Source: Gemmata obscuriglobus (GTDB taxonomy: Bacteria > Planctomycetota > Planctomycetia > Gemmatales > Gemmataceae). From it: DNA of 32,000 nucleotides. The stretch lies in the NCBI RefSeq assembly GCF_008065095.1, contig NZ_CP042911.1:3180001-3212000 (forward strand), in the 5' to 3' direction. This document shows positions 809 through 21,935 of the stretch, in pieces. Below the pieces are notes generated by a model, which saw only the letters and a list, made by a program, of their open reading frames with translations, did no database searches and was not told the origin of the DNA. The first letter of the stretch is position 1, and each line of letters starts with the position of its first letter. A program made the position numbers and the translations under genes.

Positions 809-1602
809 GCACGATTTCCGTTGGCATCCTTGAACCGGCCGCAGGCGGGCGGGTTCGTGACAGTTTACCGACAGCGGCCACCCGCCGCCCCTGCAAATGC
901 GGAACGCGGGTCTTCTGCCGCCGTCCAGATGTCGCGCGCACGGCACGCTCCTGACATCTGCCGAATAGCGACGGTCTGCGCGGCGGTGGGCTACCTGAAA
1001 GCCTTTTGCGCAACACACGAGTCGCGCGTGTTTCTGGGGGTTCGGCCGTCGCGACCGAAACGTTGGGCACGGGCGAGCAAAAGGGCTGGTGAATGAACCG
1101 CACCCGGACGACCTCGACCGTTTTCAACTCGATGCGACTCCGAGCGCGGGCGCATCGGATCGGGTGCTGGTGGCACACCGACTGGACATTCGCTAACTCC
1201 CGGCTGGTCGCGGACTACCCATTCGCTGGGACGGAGCTACCACCGAATCCCCGGTCGCCGGGATCCGCTCGCGGTTCCCGTGCCCGTCGCGGGCAATCCC
1301 GATTCCTCCAAGCGGTGGTGCGTAACGTGTTTCGATACATCCACTTGCTGCTACTACGGTTCGGTCGGGTGCTTCCACTTTGCTGGGCCTCCGGACGGCG
1401 TCCGCCGTTCGCGGGCGCGGTGCCGAACCGCTGGCAGTACCGCACGGTGCCGAAACTGACCCGCGCCGACGGGCGTTCTGCGAAACCCCGTTCCAGCCTT
1501 TACCTTCGACCGCACCTCGCGCCGGGATTCAACAGACCATATTCCGGGCCACCGTGCGCCGGCTCACTTACGATGTCTCCACACCATACGCGGAGAAGAA
1601 TC

Positions 1603-13040: not shown

Positions 13041-14316
13041 CTGGCTGGATGAGCTTGTTTTCGAGGTTTTTCAGGTAGGTACCCGTCGGGGCCACGCCGG
13101 AATCGCCGCCGCTCGCGCCGCGTTTCCAGATCGGCTCGCCGCTGCTTCCACGCGGCCCGACCTGGCCCGTGCTGATCGGCCGCGGTGACCTCGCGGGAAC
13201 GGGTCGCCAGCCCGGCCACCAGCTTGGCCGCGCCCCGCAGCACCAGTGACGGACTCGCGGCCTTGCGGCCGGTTGCCCGGCGCTCGTGGTGTCGGTGGCT
13301 CCCGAACGTCCACTCCAGGTCGTTGTTTGTCCGTGGTCGAACGACCGTGTCGTCGCACCCGAACAGCCCCGGCCGGTAGCTGCGGCTCACCTTCACGAAC
13401 TGATCCACCGCCGAACCGAGCTTGCCGACCGCCCCCCCCCGGTGCCGCGTCATGGCGCCCCGCAACCCGCTCAACTGGGACCGAACGACGGCCCCAGCGA
13501 GTTCGACTTGGCCCAGGATATGGACCGCCCGGTGTACCCACCCGAACGCCCGGTACAATGGCGCGAACGCCCCGCCGGCCGACCGCAGCGCGTCTCGGAT
13601 GATCCCCTCCAACCGGGTCCGCGCGGTCGCCCGCCCCCTTGGCCTTCACACGGCCCAGGGGGCGGGCGACCGCGCTCAGCCGGGCGTGCCGCTTGAGCCC
13701 GGACGCGTTCAGAGGCGGGCGCCCGTCGTCGGTGATGGCGCTCCGCACGGCCGAGCAGTACCCGCGTACCACCCCGGCCTCCGGCCCCGTTCGCCCCTCC
13801 ACCTGGCGCCCCCCGCGGACCTTCTTCTTGAGTGCTACCTCGGCATGCCAGGGCTACGCAGAGATCCAAACTCGGTTGAATGACAACGGGAGCGAAATGT
13901 CGTAACTCCTTGGTTTCCAATCCCTTTGTCGTTTTATCGAGTGGCTTGGCTAGTTACCCAGGCTACCCAAATTAAACCCTTGCGCAGCCCTGCTCGGCAT
14001 GCCGATCGGCCTCGTAAATGGGCTTGGCGGCCGCCCTCAGGTAGTGGAACTGGCATAGTTGGTACGGCACCCCGGGAAGTGCCTGCGCGACCGCCTTGCG
14101 GATCGAGTGCTGGCCATCGGAGATGGCCCCGGCAACCGGCACCCCGCACGCCCCTTTCACCGCCGACAGCAGGGCCGCTAGATCCTGGTTCCGCGCCGAC
14201 AACAGGCCCTTGGCCAGCAAGATGTGGCCGCTGAGCACGGCACAGTGCGGGCACGCCGCCCGCTCCGGCGTCAGGTCCCGGGTGATCGTCGGCTCGGCGG
14301 TTTTGGCCGTCTTCAC
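13041..14316 (-). pseudogene. Disrupted transposase gene (one or more frameshifts plus a MITE insertion)
   Basis: Three fragments read in order. The first is CPHCAVL..AISDGQHSIRKAVAQALPGVPYQLCQFHYLRAAAKPIYEADRHAE (13972..14316). The second is VALKKKVRGGRQVEGRTGPEAGVVRGYCSAVRSAITDDGRPPLNASGLK (frame of 13071..13802). The third is RTRLEGIIRDAL..RPRTNNDLEWTFGSHRHHERRATGRK (frame of 12488..13612). The frame changes near the G-rich tract around 13620-13640. The D..QxCxFH block resembles the second-D region of DDE transposases. Confidence 0.6.
13849..13992. mobile_element. 144-bp MITE-like insertion inside the transposase pseudogene
   Basis: A 10-bp direct repeat ctcggcatgc occurs at 13839-13848 and 13993-14002. 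The termini are cagggctacgca and its complement tgcgcagccctg. The interior is noticeably AT-richer than its surroundings. Deleting it with one repeat copy rejoins ...EADRHAE to VALKKKVRG... in frame. Confidence 0.7.
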
Positions 14317-14455
14317 GGGGCATCCTCATGGGGGCGCTCCAAAGCCTACGGAACCGCCGAAGGCTCATTCAGAGACGTTTGCCGGCCTAGAAAAAAATGC
14401 GGACGCGCCCTGGCCCCTTGCGGCAGTAACTACATCCCGACGACCGGAGGCCCCA

Positions 14456-17332
14456 GTGAACCGCTTGCGCCCCAACCCGCTCCCGGTCGTGCAGTTGCGC
14501 GCCGCGCTCGCGTCGCCCCTCGACGCGCTCCCGGACGCCGAACTGCTCGACCGGTTCGCCCGGTACGCCGACCACCCGGCCTTCGAGGTGCTGCTCCGGC
14601 GGCATGGGCCGATGGTACTCGGGGTGTGCCGCCGCACCCTCGGCGGTTCCGCGGACGCGGACGACGCGTTCCAGGCGACGTTCCTGGTGTTCCTGCGGAA
14701 GGCAAAGACGGTGCGCGGCGAGCGGCTCGGGCCGTGGCTGTACGGGGTGGCGTGGCGGGTCGCGCAGAAGGCCCGGACGCGGGCCGCCCGGCTCGCCGCG
14801 CACCGCACCGAGGGCGTCGACATGCTCCCCGCCGCTGACGAGACCGCGCCGATTCCCGACTGGCTCCCGGTTCTCGATGCCGAATTGAACGCGCTGCCCG
14901 CGAAGTACCGCGACGCGCTCGTCTTTTGCGAACTTCAGGGGCGGTCGCGGGCCGAAGCAGCACGAGCGCTGGGCCTGCGAGAAGGGACGCTCTCCAGCCG
15001 GCTGGCCCGCGGGCGCGAGCTGTTACGGAAACGTTTGTTGAAGCACGGCACACTGCTCCCGGCGGGCGGGGTCGCCGCGCTGTTTACCGCAGCCGAGGTG
15101 GGCCGCGCGACGGTGCCGGCTGCGCTCCTGACCTTGGTGTCCGAACTGGCAAAAAGTGGCGCGACCGGGGCGGTCCCGGTCGCGGCGGCCCGACTCACGG
15201 ACGAGGTGCTCAAATCCATGTTCCTCACGAAACTGCGGACAACCGGTGCGCTCGTATTGCTCGTTTGTGCGACGGCCGGACTCACGGCCGGGTGGTCGGC
15301 TGAATCGAGCGTTCCAGCAGCGGAGCCCAACCAAGCCGCGAAGGCGAGCGAGCCGCCGAAGCGGGCGGAAGACAAGCCGGTGGTGGCGCCACAACCGGCG
15401 AACAAGAAGGCCACGGCACCGAAGCGCGCGGACCGCGAGGCCCTTCAGGGGTGGTGGGTTGCTGACAGAGTCGACTTCGGCAACAATGCGAGCGATGACG
15501 AGAAAGAAGCGCTCCTCCGTCAGGAAGGGCGGCTGCATTTCTTGGTGGCCGGGGACGTATTCTGGAAGATCACAGCCGGTCGTAGTGTGGTCCCCCAGAA
15601 GTTCCATCTCGATACGGACAAGAACCCGAGATGGTTGACTCTCAGCGGATTTGATCCCGACGAGAGCCGTCAGGATAAAGCCATCTACGAACTCGACGGT
15701 GATGCCCTTCGCGTCTGCATGTCTGTTCGAGGCAATGGTCCGCGTCCCGCCGAATTCACGCGCGAGTTCTTCTCTCCAGAAGATGAGCCCCTCATGGTGC
15801 TGCATCTCAGTCGCGGGAAACGACTCCCGGTGAGTGAAACAGGACTCGTAGGTTCCTGGGCGGGGACCGAAGCTGCCGTTCAGGAGAACATTAACGGGCA
15901 GGGGAAGAGGGCGCCCGCGCCGCGCATCGAAGTCATCGGGGGGTATCTGTTCGCCCGACCAGTCGCAAACGGCAACGCCGCATCTTGGTTCGGGGGCACC
16001 TACACGATTGATGCTACGAAGAACCCCAAATGGGTTGATCTGGACCTTTTTGCCCCAGTCGAGGAAGGGAAGGGCACGAAGTTGTATGGGTGTTACGAAG
16101 TGACCGACGGTCGGCTGAAGCTTGCACTCGGCACCCGAAGGACCACCCGCCCGCTCGATTTCAAAGGCGGCAACGACACCTTCGTGTTCGATGTGACACC
16201 GACAAAACCACCTCGAACTGGTGCCTCCGCTCAGCCCACGCCGCAAATCGCACCGGCAGGCGCGCCCGCCAATGACCGCCCACTTCCGGACAAGATGGAA
16301 GAGCCGCTGAATCCCAAGGACCTCGCCGACGCGGCGGCCGTTGCGCGCCACTTGCAGGCGTGGGAAAAATGGACGGCCGGGGTAACTAACTTTCGCGCCG
16401 AGGTTAAGCTGAAACGGACAGAGGCGAGCACCGGCAATACGAAGACGCTCAGCGGCGCCACGCTGTACATGAAGCCCCATTTCGCGGTTCTGCGACTGGA
16501 TAACCCGGACGACAGCACCAAAACCGACTACGAGGCGTACATCTGCAACGAAACCGCAGTGTACGCTTACAACGGTCTGGCGAAAACGGTTACCGAGTTT
16601 AAACGACCGCCAACACTGAACCCAGAGGCCGCGCTGTTCGGGTTCCACTTCAACAGCATGAAGGTCGGTGAGCTACAAGAGCGGTTCGCCATCTCACTCT
16701 TCAAGACCGATGAACACTACCTCTACCTGGACATCAAGCCCCGGCTTGCGAAAGACCAGTGCGAGTTTCAGCACCTGCGGTTGGCCCTGTACAACCCGGG
16801 GCCGTTGACCAAGGACGTTTCGTACCTGCCCGCAGCGGTTTATCTGGTCAAACCGAACGGCGACAAGGAGCAGTGGTGGTTCACCAACCCGCAAGTGAAC
16901 ATTCCGGGTGTGGGGCCGAAACACTTTCAGTACATCGAGATCAAAGACAAAGGGTGGACCGTGCAGAAGGCCCCCGAAGAGTCGAAACCCGCCCCGCCCG
17001 CTCAGGCGGACGGGCCGGTGCAGCGGCTCGTGAAGTCCGGCGACTACGCCGAGGCCGAACTGCTCCTCCGCGCCCGCCTACCGCAGCAGAACGGATTGAA
17101 CGCCGCCGAGGACCGGCTGTTGCTCGGGATTTGCGTGTTCCATCGGGCGCGGGACCTGAGGAACAAACCGGACGACGCGGCGATGCTGGCTCCGAAACTG
17201 ATGGCCGAAGCGCTGAAATTGTTCGACGAGGCCACCGCCGGCACCGCGGGCCGGACGGATGACGAGCGCGCCGCCCGCGTGCGGACCCAAACGGAGAGGT
17301 CACGCAACGGTTTGTGCTGTGGCACCCTCTGA
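14456..17332 (+). CDS. ECF sigma-70 factor fused to a TM segment and a large extracytoplasmic region; the 3' end is replaced by IS sequence
   Basis: GTG 14456 lies 5 nt after ggagg and is the first good start after the IS terminus at 14397. Sigma region 2 is FEVLLRRHGPMVLGVCRR..DADDAFQATFLVFL. Region 4 is YRDALVFCELQGRSRAEAARALGLREGTLSSRLARGRELL. The TM segment is LRTTGALVLLVCATAGLTAGW. Two repeats resemble the planctomycete TIGR03067 domain (LQGWWV..FHLDTDKNPRWLTL..IYELDGDALRVC..RPAEF and YTIDATKNPKWVDLDL..CYEVTDGRLKLAL..RPLDF). A TIGR03009/LolA-like segment and then a helical tail follow. The last 12 codons (from 17296) are IS-derived. Confidence 0.8.
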   Translation: MNRLRPNPLPVVQLRAALASPLDALPDAELLDRFARYADHPAFEVLLRRHGPMVLGVCRRTLGGSADADDAFQATFLVFLRKAKTVRGERLGPWLYGVAWRVAQKARTRAARLAAHRTEGVDMLPAADETAPIPDWLPVLDAELNALPAKYRDALVFCELQGRSRAEAARALGLREGTLSSRLARGRELLRKRLLKHGTLLPAGGVAALFTAAEVGRATVPAALLTLVSELAKSGATGAVPVAAARLTDEVLKSMFLTKLRTTGALVLLVCATAGLTAGWSAESSVPAAEPNQAAKASEPPKRAEDKPVVAPQPANKKATAPKRADREALQGWWVADRVDFGNNASDDEKEALLRQEGRLHFLVAGDVFWKITAGRSVVPQKFHLDTDKNPRWLTLSGFDPDESRQDKAIYELDGDALRVCMSVRGNGPRPAEFTREFFSPEDEPLMVLHLSRGKRLPVSETGLVGSWAGTEAAVQENINGQGKRAPAPRIEVIGGYLFARPVANGNAASWFGGTYTIDATKNPKWVDLDLFAPVEEGKGTKLYGCYEVTDGRLKLALGTRRTTRPLDFKGGNDTFVFDVTPTKPPRTGASAQPTPQIAPAGAPANDRPLPDKMEEPLNPKDLADAAAVARHLQAWEKWTAGVTNFRAEVKLKRTEASTGNTKTLSGATLYMKPHFAVLRLDNPDDSTKTDYEAYICNETAVYAYNGLAKTVTEFKRPPTLNPEAALFGFHFNSMKVGELQERFAISLFKTDEHYLYLDIKPRLAKDQCEFQHLRLALYNPGPLTKDVSYLPAAVYLVKPNGDKEQWWFTNPQVNIPGVGPKHFQYIEIKDKGWTVQKAPEESKPAPPAQADGPVQRLVKSGDYAEAELLLRARLPQQNGLNAAEDRLLLGICVFHRARDLRNKPDDAAMLAPKLMAEALKLFDEATAGTAGRTDDERAARVRTQTERSRNGLCCGTL

Positions 17333-19435: not shown

Positions 19436-20695
19436 TTACACCTTGAACACTTCTCTCACGTTGTCGCGCAGGAGCCGCGTGCCCAGCGCGACGGCGTCCG
19501 TCTCGCTCAGCGTCCCGGGCCGCACGAACTCGTCCGCCAGCACCCCCGCCAGGATGCGGCGGTACATCCCGTACTTGGGCTTCACGAACTCCAGCTTGTA
19601 CGCGTCCGAGTAGTACCCGATCAGCTTCGTCTTGGGCACCGCGGTGATCCGCTCGGTCAGGTCCTTGCGGATGAACGGCGGGGTGTTCGAGTACCACCAG
19701 TGCCCGTTCGGCAGCACGTTCGGGAAGATCCACGAGTACGCCATCAGCTCCTGGTTCTGCAGGCTGGTGAGCACCGAGACCGGGAACGTCACTTCCGGGA
19801 ACGCGTTGAACAGGTCCCGGTACTGGATCAGGCTGGTGCGCTGGTCGAACAGGTCCTGCCCCTGGTACACGCCCTTCGGGTACACCTTGCGGTTCACCCC
19901 GATCATCAGGTCGAACGGCAGGCGGAAGTCGCGGCACAGTTCGGCGATCAGCCAGAAAATGCCCGAGGCCAGGTCGTGGTAGCCGTGGAACTGCATCTGC
20001 TCGTAGAAGTGCTCGTCGTCGAACGGGGCCGGGTGGAAGGTCGGCGGCAGCGAGATGGCGCACGCCTTCGCCCCGTTCTGCGTGAACCGCAGGAACACTC
20101 TCACCAGCGCCCGCCGCAAACTCGCGGCGTCATGGACGTCGATGCCCGTGGTCGCCTCCAGGCGCCGTCGCGTTTCCGGCTTGTCGAAGTGGAACACCAG
20201 CGTGTCGGTCCGCAGGCACGGGACGTACTTGGCGGTATCGAACCCGGTGAGCGGGTCGTCGAACTCGTTCGTCAGGAAGATCTTTTCGAGCCGCGTCTTC
20301 TCGAACACCTGCGATTCCCAGTCGGGCTGGGCGAACGTCTTCAGCGCGGCGTCGAACAGCTTGTCCGCGTCGCCCGCGGAGACACGGGTCTCGCTTTCAG
20401 GGAGCCCCAGGAAGGTGTGGGCGATGTCGATGAACCACGCGTACTGCGCGGTGTTGTCGTAGCGGTCCATGAACTTGACGATCTCGCGCACCCGGTCGCG
20501 CGGGTCGGCCTCGGGTGCGAGCAGCGTCTGGGGCATCCCGGCGGAGTGCGCCAGTTCCGTGTAGTAGTGGTAGCCGAGGATGTCGTCGAGCGACTTCGAA
20601 ACCGGCTTCAACGGGTCGATGTGTGAGTGCGGGTCGATGAGCGGAACCTTGGAGAGCGCGGACTCGAGGTTCTGAACCAGTTGATCGAGAGGCAT
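19436..20695 (-). CDS. Glucuronate (uronate) isomerase-like amidohydrolase-fold protein
   Basis: The ATG at 20695 is preceded by gaggtg and lies within ORF 19436..20881. The sequence reads MPLDQLVQNLESALSKVPLIDPHSHIDP.. (HxH metal motif) ..LGYHYYTEL..LPNGHWWYSNTP..GYYSDAYKLEF. The HWW(F/Y) and YSDA blocks recall UxaC. 419 aa. Confidence 0.7.
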   Translation of the reverse strand: MPLDQLVQNLESALSKVPLIDPHSHIDPLKPVSKSLDDILGYHYYTELAHSAGMPQTLLAPEADPRDRVREIVKFMDRYDNTAQYAWFIDIAHTFLGLPESETRVSAGDADKLFDAALKTFAQPDWESQVFEKTRLEKIFLTNEFDDPLTGFDTAKYVPCLRTDTLVFHFDKPETRRRLEATTGIDVHDAASLRRALVRVFLRFTQNGAKACAISLPPTFHPAPFDDEHFYEQMQFHGYHDLASGIFWLIAELCRDFRLPFDLMIGVNRKVYPKGVYQGQDLFDQRTSLIQYRDLFNAFPEVTFPVSVLTSLQNQELMAYSWIFPNVLPNGHWWYSNTPPFIRKDLTERITAVPKTKLIGYYSDAYKLEFVKPKYGMYRRILAGVLADEFVRPGTLSETDAVALGTRLLRDNVREVFKV

Positions 20696-20909
20696 CTCGC
20701 ACCTCGTGTTGGTAATTTGGGAACCGGTCACGGTAACTTTTACACGTTCTACGCCGGAACCAACCCGGCAAGAATTACAAACCCTGAGCACTTTAGAAGA
20801 GCGGCGTGCATTCTCGGAGCCAGTCCGGGCTCGCAGCATTTTCTTAAGATTCGATACCAAATGATTTTGCGTCCGCGGCAATAGCTAAGGTCGGCGCGGC
20901 TGCGAGAAT

Positions 20910-20925
20910 TGGCACGGTCGGTGCT
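20910..20925 (+). promoter_or_regulatory. Candidate sigma-54 (-24/-12) promoter
   Basis: TGGCACGgtcgGTGCT matches the consensus TGGCACG-N4-TTGCW at 11 of 12 positions, with the canonical GG-to-GC spacing. It is intergenic and points toward the C-run region. Confidence 0.5.
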
Positions 20926-20935
20926 TTAGATACAA

Positions 20936-21197
20936 CCGTTCGCGACGCACAACCCCCAAGTGACTCGCGAATCGGTGCCGGGCCTGCTTCTGACTCACCT
21001 TCCCCCAAGGCCGAGTCAACCCCCCAAAGCGACCCGGCACCGCGAGAACAACGACCGTCGGCTTTCCCCCAAAGTCGCGGTCACGAGAGAGATTTCCCCC
21101 CTCTCTCGGACTCATCACACAACACGTCCGATCCCCCATCTGACGGCAACCTTCCCCCAAGCCGCCGCCCTCCCCCAGGGCGGCGGTCCGTCTTTTT
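20936..21197 (+). ncRNA. Candidate novel structured RNA (~260 nt) with repeated CCCCC loops
   Basis: There is no credible ORF. Eight C5-6 runs occur on the plus strand only. Supporting helices are 20939-20945/20965-20971, 20973-20982/21033-21042, 21084-21091/21101-21108, 21126-21132/21138-21144 and 21162-21171/21177-21186. Two mini-hairpins, cctt-ccccc-aagg and cttt-ccccc-aaag, are also present. The region is bounded by a sigma-54-like promoter and an intrinsic terminator. The ends are approximate. Confidence 0.45.
21161..21197 (+). terminator. Rho-independent terminator
   Basis: A perfect 10-bp GC-rich stem, ccgccgccct (21162-21171) pairing with agggcggcgg (21177-21186), has a CCCCC loop. 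It is followed by tccgtcttttt. Confidence 0.65.
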
Positions 21198-21325
21198 GCG
21201 GTTCCAGTCGTTCAGAGTTTCAAGTTGTCCACCGTCCAATTGAAGCGCGTCGTTTCGAGTGCGAGTCTCCGCCTACCGGCTGACGCCAGTGGATGACGCT
21301 CGCAACCACCAATTAGGCTTCAGTC

Positions 21326-21442
21326 GGACCTCAGTAGTTTCAGGTTCCAAGTTCCAAGTCGGAACCCAGTTGGTCAAAAGCGGCGGCGATTCGTGCCGCT
21401 CATGACTCCACTTGGAACCTGGAACTTGAAACTACTGGACCT
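21326..21442. repeat. Long imperfect inverted repeat (~28-bp arms containing tandem gttccaa heptamers)
   Basis: cagtagtttcaggttccaagttccaagt (21332-21359) matches the reverse complement of acttggaacctggaacttgaaactactg (21410-21437) with two mismatches. The spacer is about 50 nt. It ends 5 nt before the stop of the minus-strand phosphoesterase gene. Confidence 0.7.
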
Positions 21443-21446
21443 GATA

Positions 21447-21935
21447 TCACCCTGGCACGTCGAGAAAGCGTAAGGCGCCGCTCTCGACTTCGAGAAGTGC
21501 CACGGTGAACACATCGGCACGTTTCAGCGCGCCGGGGTTGATGCGCCGAACCGCCCCCGTTGTGGTGAACGCGGCAATGTGGGTGTGACCGCTCAGTAGG
21601 TAATCCGGTCCCTCTCCGAGCAACTGCCGCACGTCCGAACTCATGTGACCGTGGGTGACCGCAATGCGTTTCCCGGCCGCTTCGATCATCCCGCACCAGC
21701 CGAGACACTCGACGCCGGTGCCCGCTGCGGCCCGGTATAGGTAGGGAACCGAGTCCGCGTCGTGGTTGCCGAACACAAACCAGGCCGGGAGCACTGCGAG
21801 CAACTCCACGATCGCCTCGGACGCCAGATCCCCGCAATGAACCAGTGCCTCCGCGCCCTCGGCGCGCAACATTTCGATGGCGCGCCGGGTGCGTTCGATT
21901 TCGTCGTGCGTGTCCGAAAGGATGCCCAATCGCAT
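21447..21935 (-). CDS. YfcE/MJ0936-family metallophosphoesterase
   Basis: The ATG at 21935 gives MRLGILSDTHDE. It carries the metallophosphoesterase motif series: DTHD, HCGDL, FGNHDAD, VTHGH, SGHTH. 162 aa. Confidence 0.85.
   Translation of the reverse strand: MRLGILSDTHDEIERTRRAIEMLRAEGAEALVHCGDLASEAIVELLAVLPAWFVFGNHDADSVPYLYRAAAGTGVECLGWCGMIEAAGKRIAVTHGHMSSDVRQLLGEGPDYLLSGHTHIAAFTTTGAVRRINPGALKRADVFTVALLEVESGALRFLDVPG

Follow-up and report, generated by a model that had tools for sequence, protein, structure and literature searches.

What is encoded in the intergenic DNA that separates a uxaC-like gene from a convergent metallophosphoesterase gene in Gemmata obscuriglobus? We analysed a stretch of 32,000 nucleotides (nt) of contig NZ_CP042911.1 (positions 3,180,001 to 3,212,000; hereafter the window, with coordinates counted from its first letter), for which an initial annotation had proposed a sigma-54-driven, terminator-bounded RNA of about 260 nt with C5 loops on the plus strand. 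Each element of this proposal was backed by comparative data, and the eight C runs, the promoter, the stems and the terminator were all present in the sequence where they had been placed. Positions 20936-21197 (+) almost certainly constitute a genuine, stand-alone structured RNA gene of Gemmataceae, with a predicted transcript of about 262 nt defined by covariance model R1, the z-score of its fold and covariation. Its sequence and that of its relatives support a gene unit consisting of a putative sigma-54 -24/-12 promoter motif, a body of covarying helices and a predicted intrinsic terminator. The RNA represents a new family that was not catalogued before, and its kind, the small RNAs (sRNAs) with C-rich loops, is already known.

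Conservation of the element was assessed with R1, built from 20 sequences and applied with a cut-off of E < 0.01 to 85 sources, namely the window and 84 Gemmataceae loci from 4 named genomes and 80 species-representative genomes. R1 matched the window once, at 20935-21198 (+) with 230.9 bits, and the same scan found no paralogue there. Matches were obtained in 56 of the 85 sources, with hosts labelled Gemmata, Frigoriglobus, Urbifossiella, Fimbriiglobus, Limnoglobus, Zavarzinella and unclassified Gemmataceae; iterated nhmmer recovered a homologue in 51 loci, and both methods gave one copy per locus. All but one of the 55 R1 matches in genome loci were located just upstream of a uxaC-like gene and divergent from it, at a distance of 130-360 nt, the exception being a weak partial match (L081, 18.5 bits, + strand) downstream of the uxaC-like gene. 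In most loci, the sense strand of the uxaC-like gene has a cluster of 4-9 G5 runs just ahead of the gene, and these are C5 runs on the divergent strand. Of the 77 loci whose upstream DNA was long enough, 61 passed a looser motif test (GGCA[CT]-N6-TGC and, after it, four or more C4 runs), and several of these had been missed by R1. The initial annotation had looked to homologous loci for C runs and compensatory changes, and both were kept.

Metagenomes were scanned with a protein-independent DNA pattern, TGGCAC-N6-TGC-N45-75-CCTTCCCCCAAGG, for which we estimated a handful of chance matches. The scan yielded 48 loci, 42 of which were confirmed by R1, and most had an adjacent divergent uxaC-like gene. 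Three loci lacked that gene and carried the RNA between PolB-exonuclease-like and Zn-dehydrogenase genes (L121, L119 and L107; 3893-4134 (+) in L121), and in a fourth (L117, 981-1209 (+)) the RNA adjoined a DAHP synthase gene, likewise with no uxaC-like neighbour. Because copies exist without this neighbour, the RNA gene is an autonomous unit that is usually linked to the uxaC-like gene. In one further locus, L101, the RNA and its upstream region are identical to those of L117, yet the uxaC-like gene is present, and L117 may have arisen by rearrangement or by chimeric assembly. L126 carries, at ~1113-1265 (+), a compact form of the RNA of about 125 nt that follows the same sigma-54 motif (TGGCACGCCCGGTGCTTTA) and escaped detection by R1; of its four C5 runs, three are in hairpin loops, the terminator loop among them. 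Three other metagenome loci (L095, L100 and L130) have a sigma-54-like motif and, after it, one CCUUCCCCCAAGG hairpin and then a U run. The covariance model rejected these three as family members; they may encode short RNAs with no relation to the family, or may match by chance.

The plus strand folds with a minimum free energy (MFE) of -109 kcal/mol, compared to -71.1 ± 4.6 in 200 dinucleotide shuffles (z = -8.3), while the minus strand reached a z-score of only -4.3. RNAalifold, run on a MAFFT alignment, recovered stem-loop (SL) 1, domain 2 with its apical hairpin, SL5 and the terminator, with compensatory changes in 22 of 52 predicted pairs; a helix joining promoter and body in this output was discarded as an artefact of the promoter being in the alignment. 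In the model-fitted alignment A3 of 56 sequences, 96.0% of cells paired compared to 70.9% in shuffles, 45 of 46 pairs had compensatory changes, and the covariation score was 0.449 against 0.125 in shuffles (0/500 reached it) and 0.05-0.07 in controls with slid partners. Since A3 leans towards the model, the count was repeated on a sequence-only MAFFT alignment (A2), where 23 of 46 pairs were compensatory compared to 9.0 ± 1.8 in shuffles and 1-7 with slid partners. Compensatory changes were thus abundant in the stems and the terminator of the Gemmataceae alignment, the comparison by which the initial annotation had suggested its fold be judged.

All structural elements lie on the plus strand. 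SL1 (20938-20972), delineated by MFE helices and compensatory changes, is an 8-bp plus 3-bp (base pair) hairpin that holds run 1 (20953-20957) in its apical loop AACCCCCAA; all 9 pairs of helices 1 and 2 show compensatory changes, and run 1 is kept in 24/24 close homologues. Domain 2 (20973-21042) is a three-tier helix of 10 + 5 + 10 bp in the MFE fold, with covariation in helices 3-7. Its apical hairpin, CCUU-CCCCC-AAGG, carries run 2 (21002-21006), and run 3 (21020-21025) is located in the 3' internal loop; the two runs are kept in 24/24 and 21/24 close homologues, respectively, and the CCTTCCCCCAAGG hairpin is nearly universal, including in distant members. SL4 (21053-21082) is a two-tier hairpin with run 4 (21066-21070) as a CCCCC pentaloop. 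It is absent from R1 because the C runs make MAFFT mis-anchor the alignment, and it was delineated from individual RNAfold folds after MAFFT plus RNAalifold on this segment had recovered the outer helix alone. This outer GGCC/GGCC helix shows compensatory changes, the C run lies in the apical loop of a two-tier hairpin in 21/21 distinct close homologues, and among these the loop-closing pairs alternate between U-A/U-A and C-G/C-G. SL5 (21084-21108), supported by alignment A1 and covariation, is an 8-bp hairpin (CGAGAGAG/CUCUCUCG) with run 5 (21096-21101) in the loop AUUUCCCCC; it is the most sequence-conserved hairpin, with columns G205-T220 of A1 invariant and 7 of the 8 pairs of helix 8 compensatory across 56 sequences.

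Downstream of SL5, a linker at 21109-21160 is conserved as sequence and mostly unpaired, with the consensus ...UCAGACAnCACGUCCGUUCCCCCGUC...CCUUCCCCC, including ...CACGUCCGUUCCCCCGUC..., and no conserved stem. It contains runs 6 (21133-37) and 7 (21154-58), which have unpaired probabilities of 0.97-0.99 and are kept as C4 or longer in 22/24 and 23/24 close homologues. The stems listed in the initial annotation were all complementary and present in the MFE fold. One of them, the 7-bp imperfect stem 21126-32/21138-44 (SL6), was not conserved as a stem in relatives and was rejected, the region around it being conserved as sequence. The gene is predicted to end in an intrinsic terminator (21161-21197), defined by a terminator scan and covariation, with an 11-bp GC-rich stem, run 8 (21172-21176) as its loop and T5 at 21193-21197. 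The scan returned a single site, on the plus strand at 21161-21187, with 11 pairs (9 G-C) followed by CCGTCTTTTT, in agreement with the GC stem, CCCCC loop and T5 run described earlier apart from the length of the stem, which had been put at 10 bp; all 10 pairs of helix 9 were compensatory across 56 sequences.

The eight C runs are the most constant part of this architecture. Recounting reproduced the eight runs of five or six C (starting at 20953, 21002, 21020, 21066, 21096, 21133, 21154 and 21172) and the absence of any G5 run from the same strand of this interval; the RNA body has no run of four or more G. The remaining 31.7 kb of the window holds 23 runs of at least five C, corresponding to 0.16 expected per 225 nt and a Poisson probability of ~1e-11 for eight or more in 225 nt. 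In the structural ensemble, the mean unpaired probability was 0.82-1.00 for all eight runs compared to 0.41 for the whole RNA, which is 59% paired. Each run was found at its position, as C4 or longer, in at least 21 of 24 close homologues, and in alignments of relatives the C runs formed invariant columns and the stems were variable. Among the folds of 53 homologues, nearly every hairpin loop held a C run, with CCCCC by far the commonest loop (101 instances). The initial annotation had counted six to eight apical loops, of which five are conserved as such (in SL1, SL2, SL4, SL5 and the terminator); the other three runs are unpaired tracts, run 3 in an internal loop and runs 6 and 7 in the sequence-conserved, largely unpaired linker. 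The comparison suggests that variable, covarying scaffolds hold eight C5 tracts open, the typical loop being a CCCCC pentaloop closed by U-A.

The motif TGGCACGGTCGGTGCT at 20910-20925 (+) is very probably a promoter of the sigma-54 (RpoN) type, judging from its sequence and conservation. Scored against TGGCACG-N4-TTGCW with 12 specified positions, it matched at 11 and had canonical GG/GC spacing. A rescan of both strands of the window reproduced this score and bore out the claim that the site is unique, a score of at least 11 being reached nowhere else in the 32 kb. In a 23-sequence alignment that included upstream DNA, the GGCACG, TGC and TT of TTGGCACG-N5-TGCTTT were invariant, while the DNA immediately 5' of the motif was unconserved and the flanks varied. 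The -24/-12 motif recurred in nearly all of the 53 full-length R1 matches examined, with 12/12 positions in several distant members, and in most of them it lay 24-26 nt ahead of the start of the match. Placing GC at -13/-12 gives a predicted start at about 20936, which is the exact beginning of the first helix.

One other block of the intergenic region was conserved in an alignment of 24 loci, and it was the sole one. It spans ~50 nt at 20732-20782 (GGTAACTTTTACAC...CGGCAAGAATTACAAAC, with no strand assigned), 130-180 nt upstream of the -24 element, and carries TTAC(A/C)A-type repeats. TTACAA/TTGTAA hexamers occurred upstream of the promoter in 83 of 90 unique family loci, at a density of 1.59 per locus compared to 0.11 per background segment, clustering in the 20-nt bins between -160 and -121; a degenerate copy of the block was kept in L121, L119 and L107, where the uxaC-like gene is missing. 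Both position and persistence fit a candidate enhancer, that is, an activator-binding region of the sigma-54 promoter. Because the block could also serve the divergent gene, as promoter or operator of the uxaC-like gene, we treat it as a candidate only. Several species have a second motif, TGTGGCACG, ~100 nt ahead of the sigma-54 promoter (L004 ~2360-2390, with equivalent positions in L002, L003, L006-L010 and L012). It is degenerate in the window, and in Frigoriglobus tundricola it forms a dyad, GTGGCACG-N13-CGTGCCAC. It might be part of an activator site.

Readings of the locus other than as an RNA gene in its own right turn mainly on strand and coding potential. The conserved DNA could belong to the uxaC-like gene as a cis element, whether as its minus-strand leader, as a G-tract (quadruplex-like) upstream element or as the functionless by-product of a divergent promoter, and the tight, widely conserved, divergent linkage at 130-360 nt is what such an element would show. 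We consider this very improbable, since the promoter motif and the T run of the terminator occur on the C-rich (+) strand only, paired columns on that strand contain 81 G-U cells compared to 33 A-C cells, the plus-strand fold is much the better one, the RNA persists beside other genes in L121, L119, L107 and L117, and the covarying helices imply selection on an RNA product. The initial annotation had allowed that the region might be nothing but a minus-strand leader of the isomerase gene; promoter and terminator face away from that gene and copies exist without it, which argues that it is not merely such a leader. A small protein gene has next to no chance of being the explanation, although open reading frames (ORFs) are present, as is usual at 66% GC (20960-21283 (+), 107 amino acids, and 20885-21160 (-), 91 amino acids), and an automatic gene call covers the homologous region in Gemmata sp. 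SH-PL17. Neither ORF has a Pfam match; no reading frame is conserved, because homologues differ by many 1- and 2-nt indels, and their substitution pattern is that of paired helices, all in keeping with the original view that the region lacks a credible protein gene. The SH-PL17 gene (CP011271; L002 1808-2473 (-)) is called as 221 amino acids with no Pfam family and overlaps the RNA region at 1996-2257; this ORF was probably called in error across the RNA gene.

The remaining question of identity is whether the RNA descends from a known family. At gathering thresholds, Rfam 15 gave no match in the window or in 12 homologous loci, as expected from the earlier failure to recognise a known family. 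A more sensitive scan of 20650-21500 (E <= 10) returned 7 matches, the best being sX13 (RF02232) with 26.2 bits against a cut-off of 50 (E = 0.009; 21073-21195 (+)), which aligns SL5 and the terminator. The others included ar14/cuckoo (RF02344; 13.6 bits against 58.8, E = 6.1), with ar14, Yfr1 and RgsA all below threshold at 13-14 bits, and 6C, which we take to be RF01066, was not among the 7. Such matches reflect a resemblance of design and not membership. That the RNA is a divergent member, by common descent, of the Xanthomonadaceae family sX13 is suggested by sX13 being the best sub-threshold match, and is nevertheless highly improbable: the score of 26.2 bits is about half of the gathering cut-off, for which reason the RNA is not assigned to sX13, and it rests on C-rich loops and a terminator, which are traits that arise convergently. 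The known sX13 is an RNA of 115 nt with three stems and 4C/4C/5C loops that adjoins polA (PMC3771888), compared to 262 nt and 5-6 hairpins beside a different neighbour and in another phylum here.

We lean, if only slightly, towards a sigma-54-driven multi-seed RNA that pairs with G tracts as the best overall explanation, the leaning being slight because base-pairing is its least certain step. From what is known of sigma-54 promoters, RpoN holoenzyme would transcribe the RNA upon activation by an enhancer-binding protein, which probably binds at the conserved block of TTACAA repeats, about 120-160 nt ahead of -24, and the RNA would be made only under a specific signal because sigma-54 transcription needs such an activator. 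Each C tract would then be one of several seeds, and pairing of these seeds with GGGG(G) inside or close to the ribosome-binding site would block translation initiation on a subset of messenger RNAs (mRNAs). A chaperone is probably dispensable, because runs of G-C pairs are stable alone, and eight seeds would allow either cooperative multi-site binding to one mRNA or the capture of several mRNAs at once. C5 would select a subclass of mRNAs because it pairs perfectly with GGGGG and forms a C-A mismatch with GGAGG.

This mechanism is drawn by analogy with 6C, sX13, RsaE/RoxS and CcsR, and two traits of the C-rich-loop sRNA class are present here, with single-stranded C tracts in a stable fold, a predicted promoter and terminator of its own and no coding function. 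The C-rich loops of mycobacterial 6C bind G-rich ribosome-binding sites, e.g. AGGGGGG of panD, without a chaperone, and it has many targets (PMC6486639). sX13 acts through its 4C/5C loops and without need of Hfq, repressing mRNAs in which a G-rich motif lies close to the start codon; ~5% of Xanthomonas genes bear such a motif at the ribosome-binding position (PMC3771888). We looked for a comparable target pool in the fetched Gemmataceae DNA using a set of unambiguous ATG starts, which replaced a count of G4 upstream of any long ORF that proved too noisy. GGGG was present 3-20 nt upstream in 9/117 start codons compared to 3/117 in the control region, and the main Shine-Dalgarno type, GGAG/GAGG, was present at 26-32 of the 117 start sites. 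The uxaC-like mRNA was considered as a target and rejected, its ribosome-binding site usually being GGAG, GAGG or GAGAGGG.

Several observations weigh against pairing with G tracts or against the certainty of the gene behind it. The pool of GGGG starts is plausible and thinly supported, the enrichment resting on small numbers. Matches to TTGGGGGAA with at most one mismatch occurred at chance level only in the window outside the RNA gene, and a G4 tract lay near the start of the uxaC-like gene in 14/105 loci only. No gene for an enhancer-binding protein with the GAFTGA signature was found in 799 kb of fetched flanks. The A3 covariation figures come from an alignment fitted to the model, and the contrast in A2 is weaker yet clear; support for the RNA gene consists of sequence, structure and conservation, and the transcript, its ends and its rpoN dependence are predictions. 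Protein-sponge RNAs, moreover, are likewise marked by a short motif that recurs in loops and is strictly invariant. On balance, base-pairing to G tracts as the mode of action is for us evenly poised between right and wrong, and ranks ahead of a protein sponge, the main rival, with other alternatives low.

As a sponge of the CsrB/RsmZ or CrcZ type, the RNA would use its eight C5 tracts to titrate a protein that binds C-rich single strands and so free the mRNA targets of that protein whenever the sigma-54 activator switches the RNA on. This is what one short motif would suggest that is present eight times, invariant and displayed in loops and linkers on stems that merely covary, and an mRNA target was found neither in the window nor in the uxaC-like mRNA. 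CrcZ of Pseudomonas offers a precedent as a sigma-54 (CbrB) dependent RNA whose repeated motifs sequester Hfq. PMC5501646 describes CrcZ as an RNA that titrates Hfq. All characterised bacterial C-rich-loop sRNAs that we found act by base pairing, however, and no candidate partner gene is linked to the locus, so we hold the sponge to be possible but rather unlikely. It also counts against a sponge that, to our knowledge, no bacterial protein binds CCCCC loops specifically. If the tracts instead captured G-rich small RNAs or G-tract RNA fragments, the RNA would be a decoy acting one level above mRNA repression, and being both multivalent and very stable in structure it would be well suited as a stoichiometric trap. 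We grade this idea as pure speculation and improbable, given that the window and the flanks of the first 85 loci showed neither a G-run cluster nor a partner RNA rich in G, that C5 clusters on the sense strand of genes are rare and that the G5 clusters are the RNA gene itself. A broader and tentative reading, to which we give about the same limited credence as to the sponge, is that of a multivalent poly-C display hub, in which eight equivalent C5 sites on a rigid scaffold, switched by the sigma-54 activator, would exert Gemmataceae-specific global post-transcriptional control, either by sequestering a putative planctomycete C-tract-binding protein or by gathering many G-tract mRNAs.

The neighbouring genes were examined for context. 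The left gene (19436-20695 (-)) encodes a distant UxaC/amidohydrolase relative (Pfam PF02614, 28.7 bits, cut-off 25) that is 98% identical to a Gemmata algarum protein. Gemmata and Frigoriglobus share ~84% identity in the uxaC-like protein, whose close relatives number in the thousands; by its sequence this protein may represent a distinct, strongly constrained amidohydrolase family and not a true glucuronate isomerase. To the right, a 28-nt inverted repeat (21332-21359/21410-21437; 93% complementary, with a 50-nt spacer) built of GTTCCAAGT-type short repeats is flanked by the RNA terminator on one side and, on the other, by the convergent metallophosphoesterase gene with its 3' end. The repeat may form a long terminator hairpin, or it may be a small repeat element. 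Elsewhere in the window, an ORF of 1078 amino acids (14096-17332 (+)) has as its only recognisable parts the regions 2 and 4 of extracytoplasmic function (ECF)-type sigma-70 factors, at residues 166-312, and is unusually long for a sigma-factor-like protein.

A family-wide RNA gene with an explicit design, comprising a predicted on-switch (sigma-54 promoter and candidate enhancer), covarying scaffolds and eight unpaired C5 tracts, offers an entry to post-transcriptional control and to the sigma-54 regulon of Gemmata-type bacteria. With 8 sites compared to 2-3 in 6C, sX13 and RsaE, it would also be a natural test of valency in regulation by C loops and G tracts. The covariance model is ready for annotating Gemmataceae genomes, and at least one likely spurious gene call, that of Gemmata sp. 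SH-PL17, can be removed. The literature searched contained no described planctomycete small RNA or characterised regulatory RNA, and the hub, if real, would be the first regulatory RNA defined in Planctomycetes as far as that literature shows.

Among known systems, the RNA resembles sX13 in being stand-alone and strongly structured, with CCCC or CCCCC apical loops of which the last is on the terminator hairpin, but differs from it in having 8 C tracts instead of 3 loops, a uxaC-like neighbour instead of polA and a host of a different phylum; no sigma-54 promoter was reported for sX13 in the literature searched. With 6C/B11 it shares a high-GC host and C-rich loops, and pairing with G-rich ribosome-binding sites without a chaperone is known from 6C and proposed here; 6C/B11 has two functional C-rich loops, is much shorter, is restricted to Actinobacteria and uses another type of promoter. 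CcsR1-4 or 'cuckoo' RNAs (alpha-r14, Alphaproteobacteria) and RsaE/RoxS (Firmicutes) expose C-rich, anti-Shine-Dalgarno-like motifs in hairpin loops, with CCUCCUCCC or UCCC in place of the pure C5 found here; their expression depends on stress sigma factors or on other regulators and not on sigma-54. The four tandem units of CcsR1-4 place about eight C-rich loops on one primary transcript, but these units are repeated homologous modules that are processed apart, in contrast to the one non-repetitive 262-nt fold described here.

The sigma-54-dependent regulatory RNAs CrcZ, Qrr1-5, GlmY and NrsZ have -24/-12 promoters that require an activator, are all from Proteobacteria, and are unlike the present RNA in sequence and structure; in the Caulobacter sponge RNA paper, sigma-54 appears in the reference list only. 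In CrcZ, Hfq binds to a motif rich in A; the Qrr sRNAs act together with Hfq through one seed only. CrcZ, which acts as a sponge, is similar in combining a -24/-12 promoter with several copies of one short motif, and many copies of one motif are likewise the trait shared with CsrB/RsmZ, C5 differing from the GGA or A-rich motifs of these sponges. What sets the Gemmataceae RNA apart from all of them is the combination of eight C5 sites in a single non-repetitive 262-nt fold, an invariant sigma-54 promoter motif and a phylum without characterised riboregulators.

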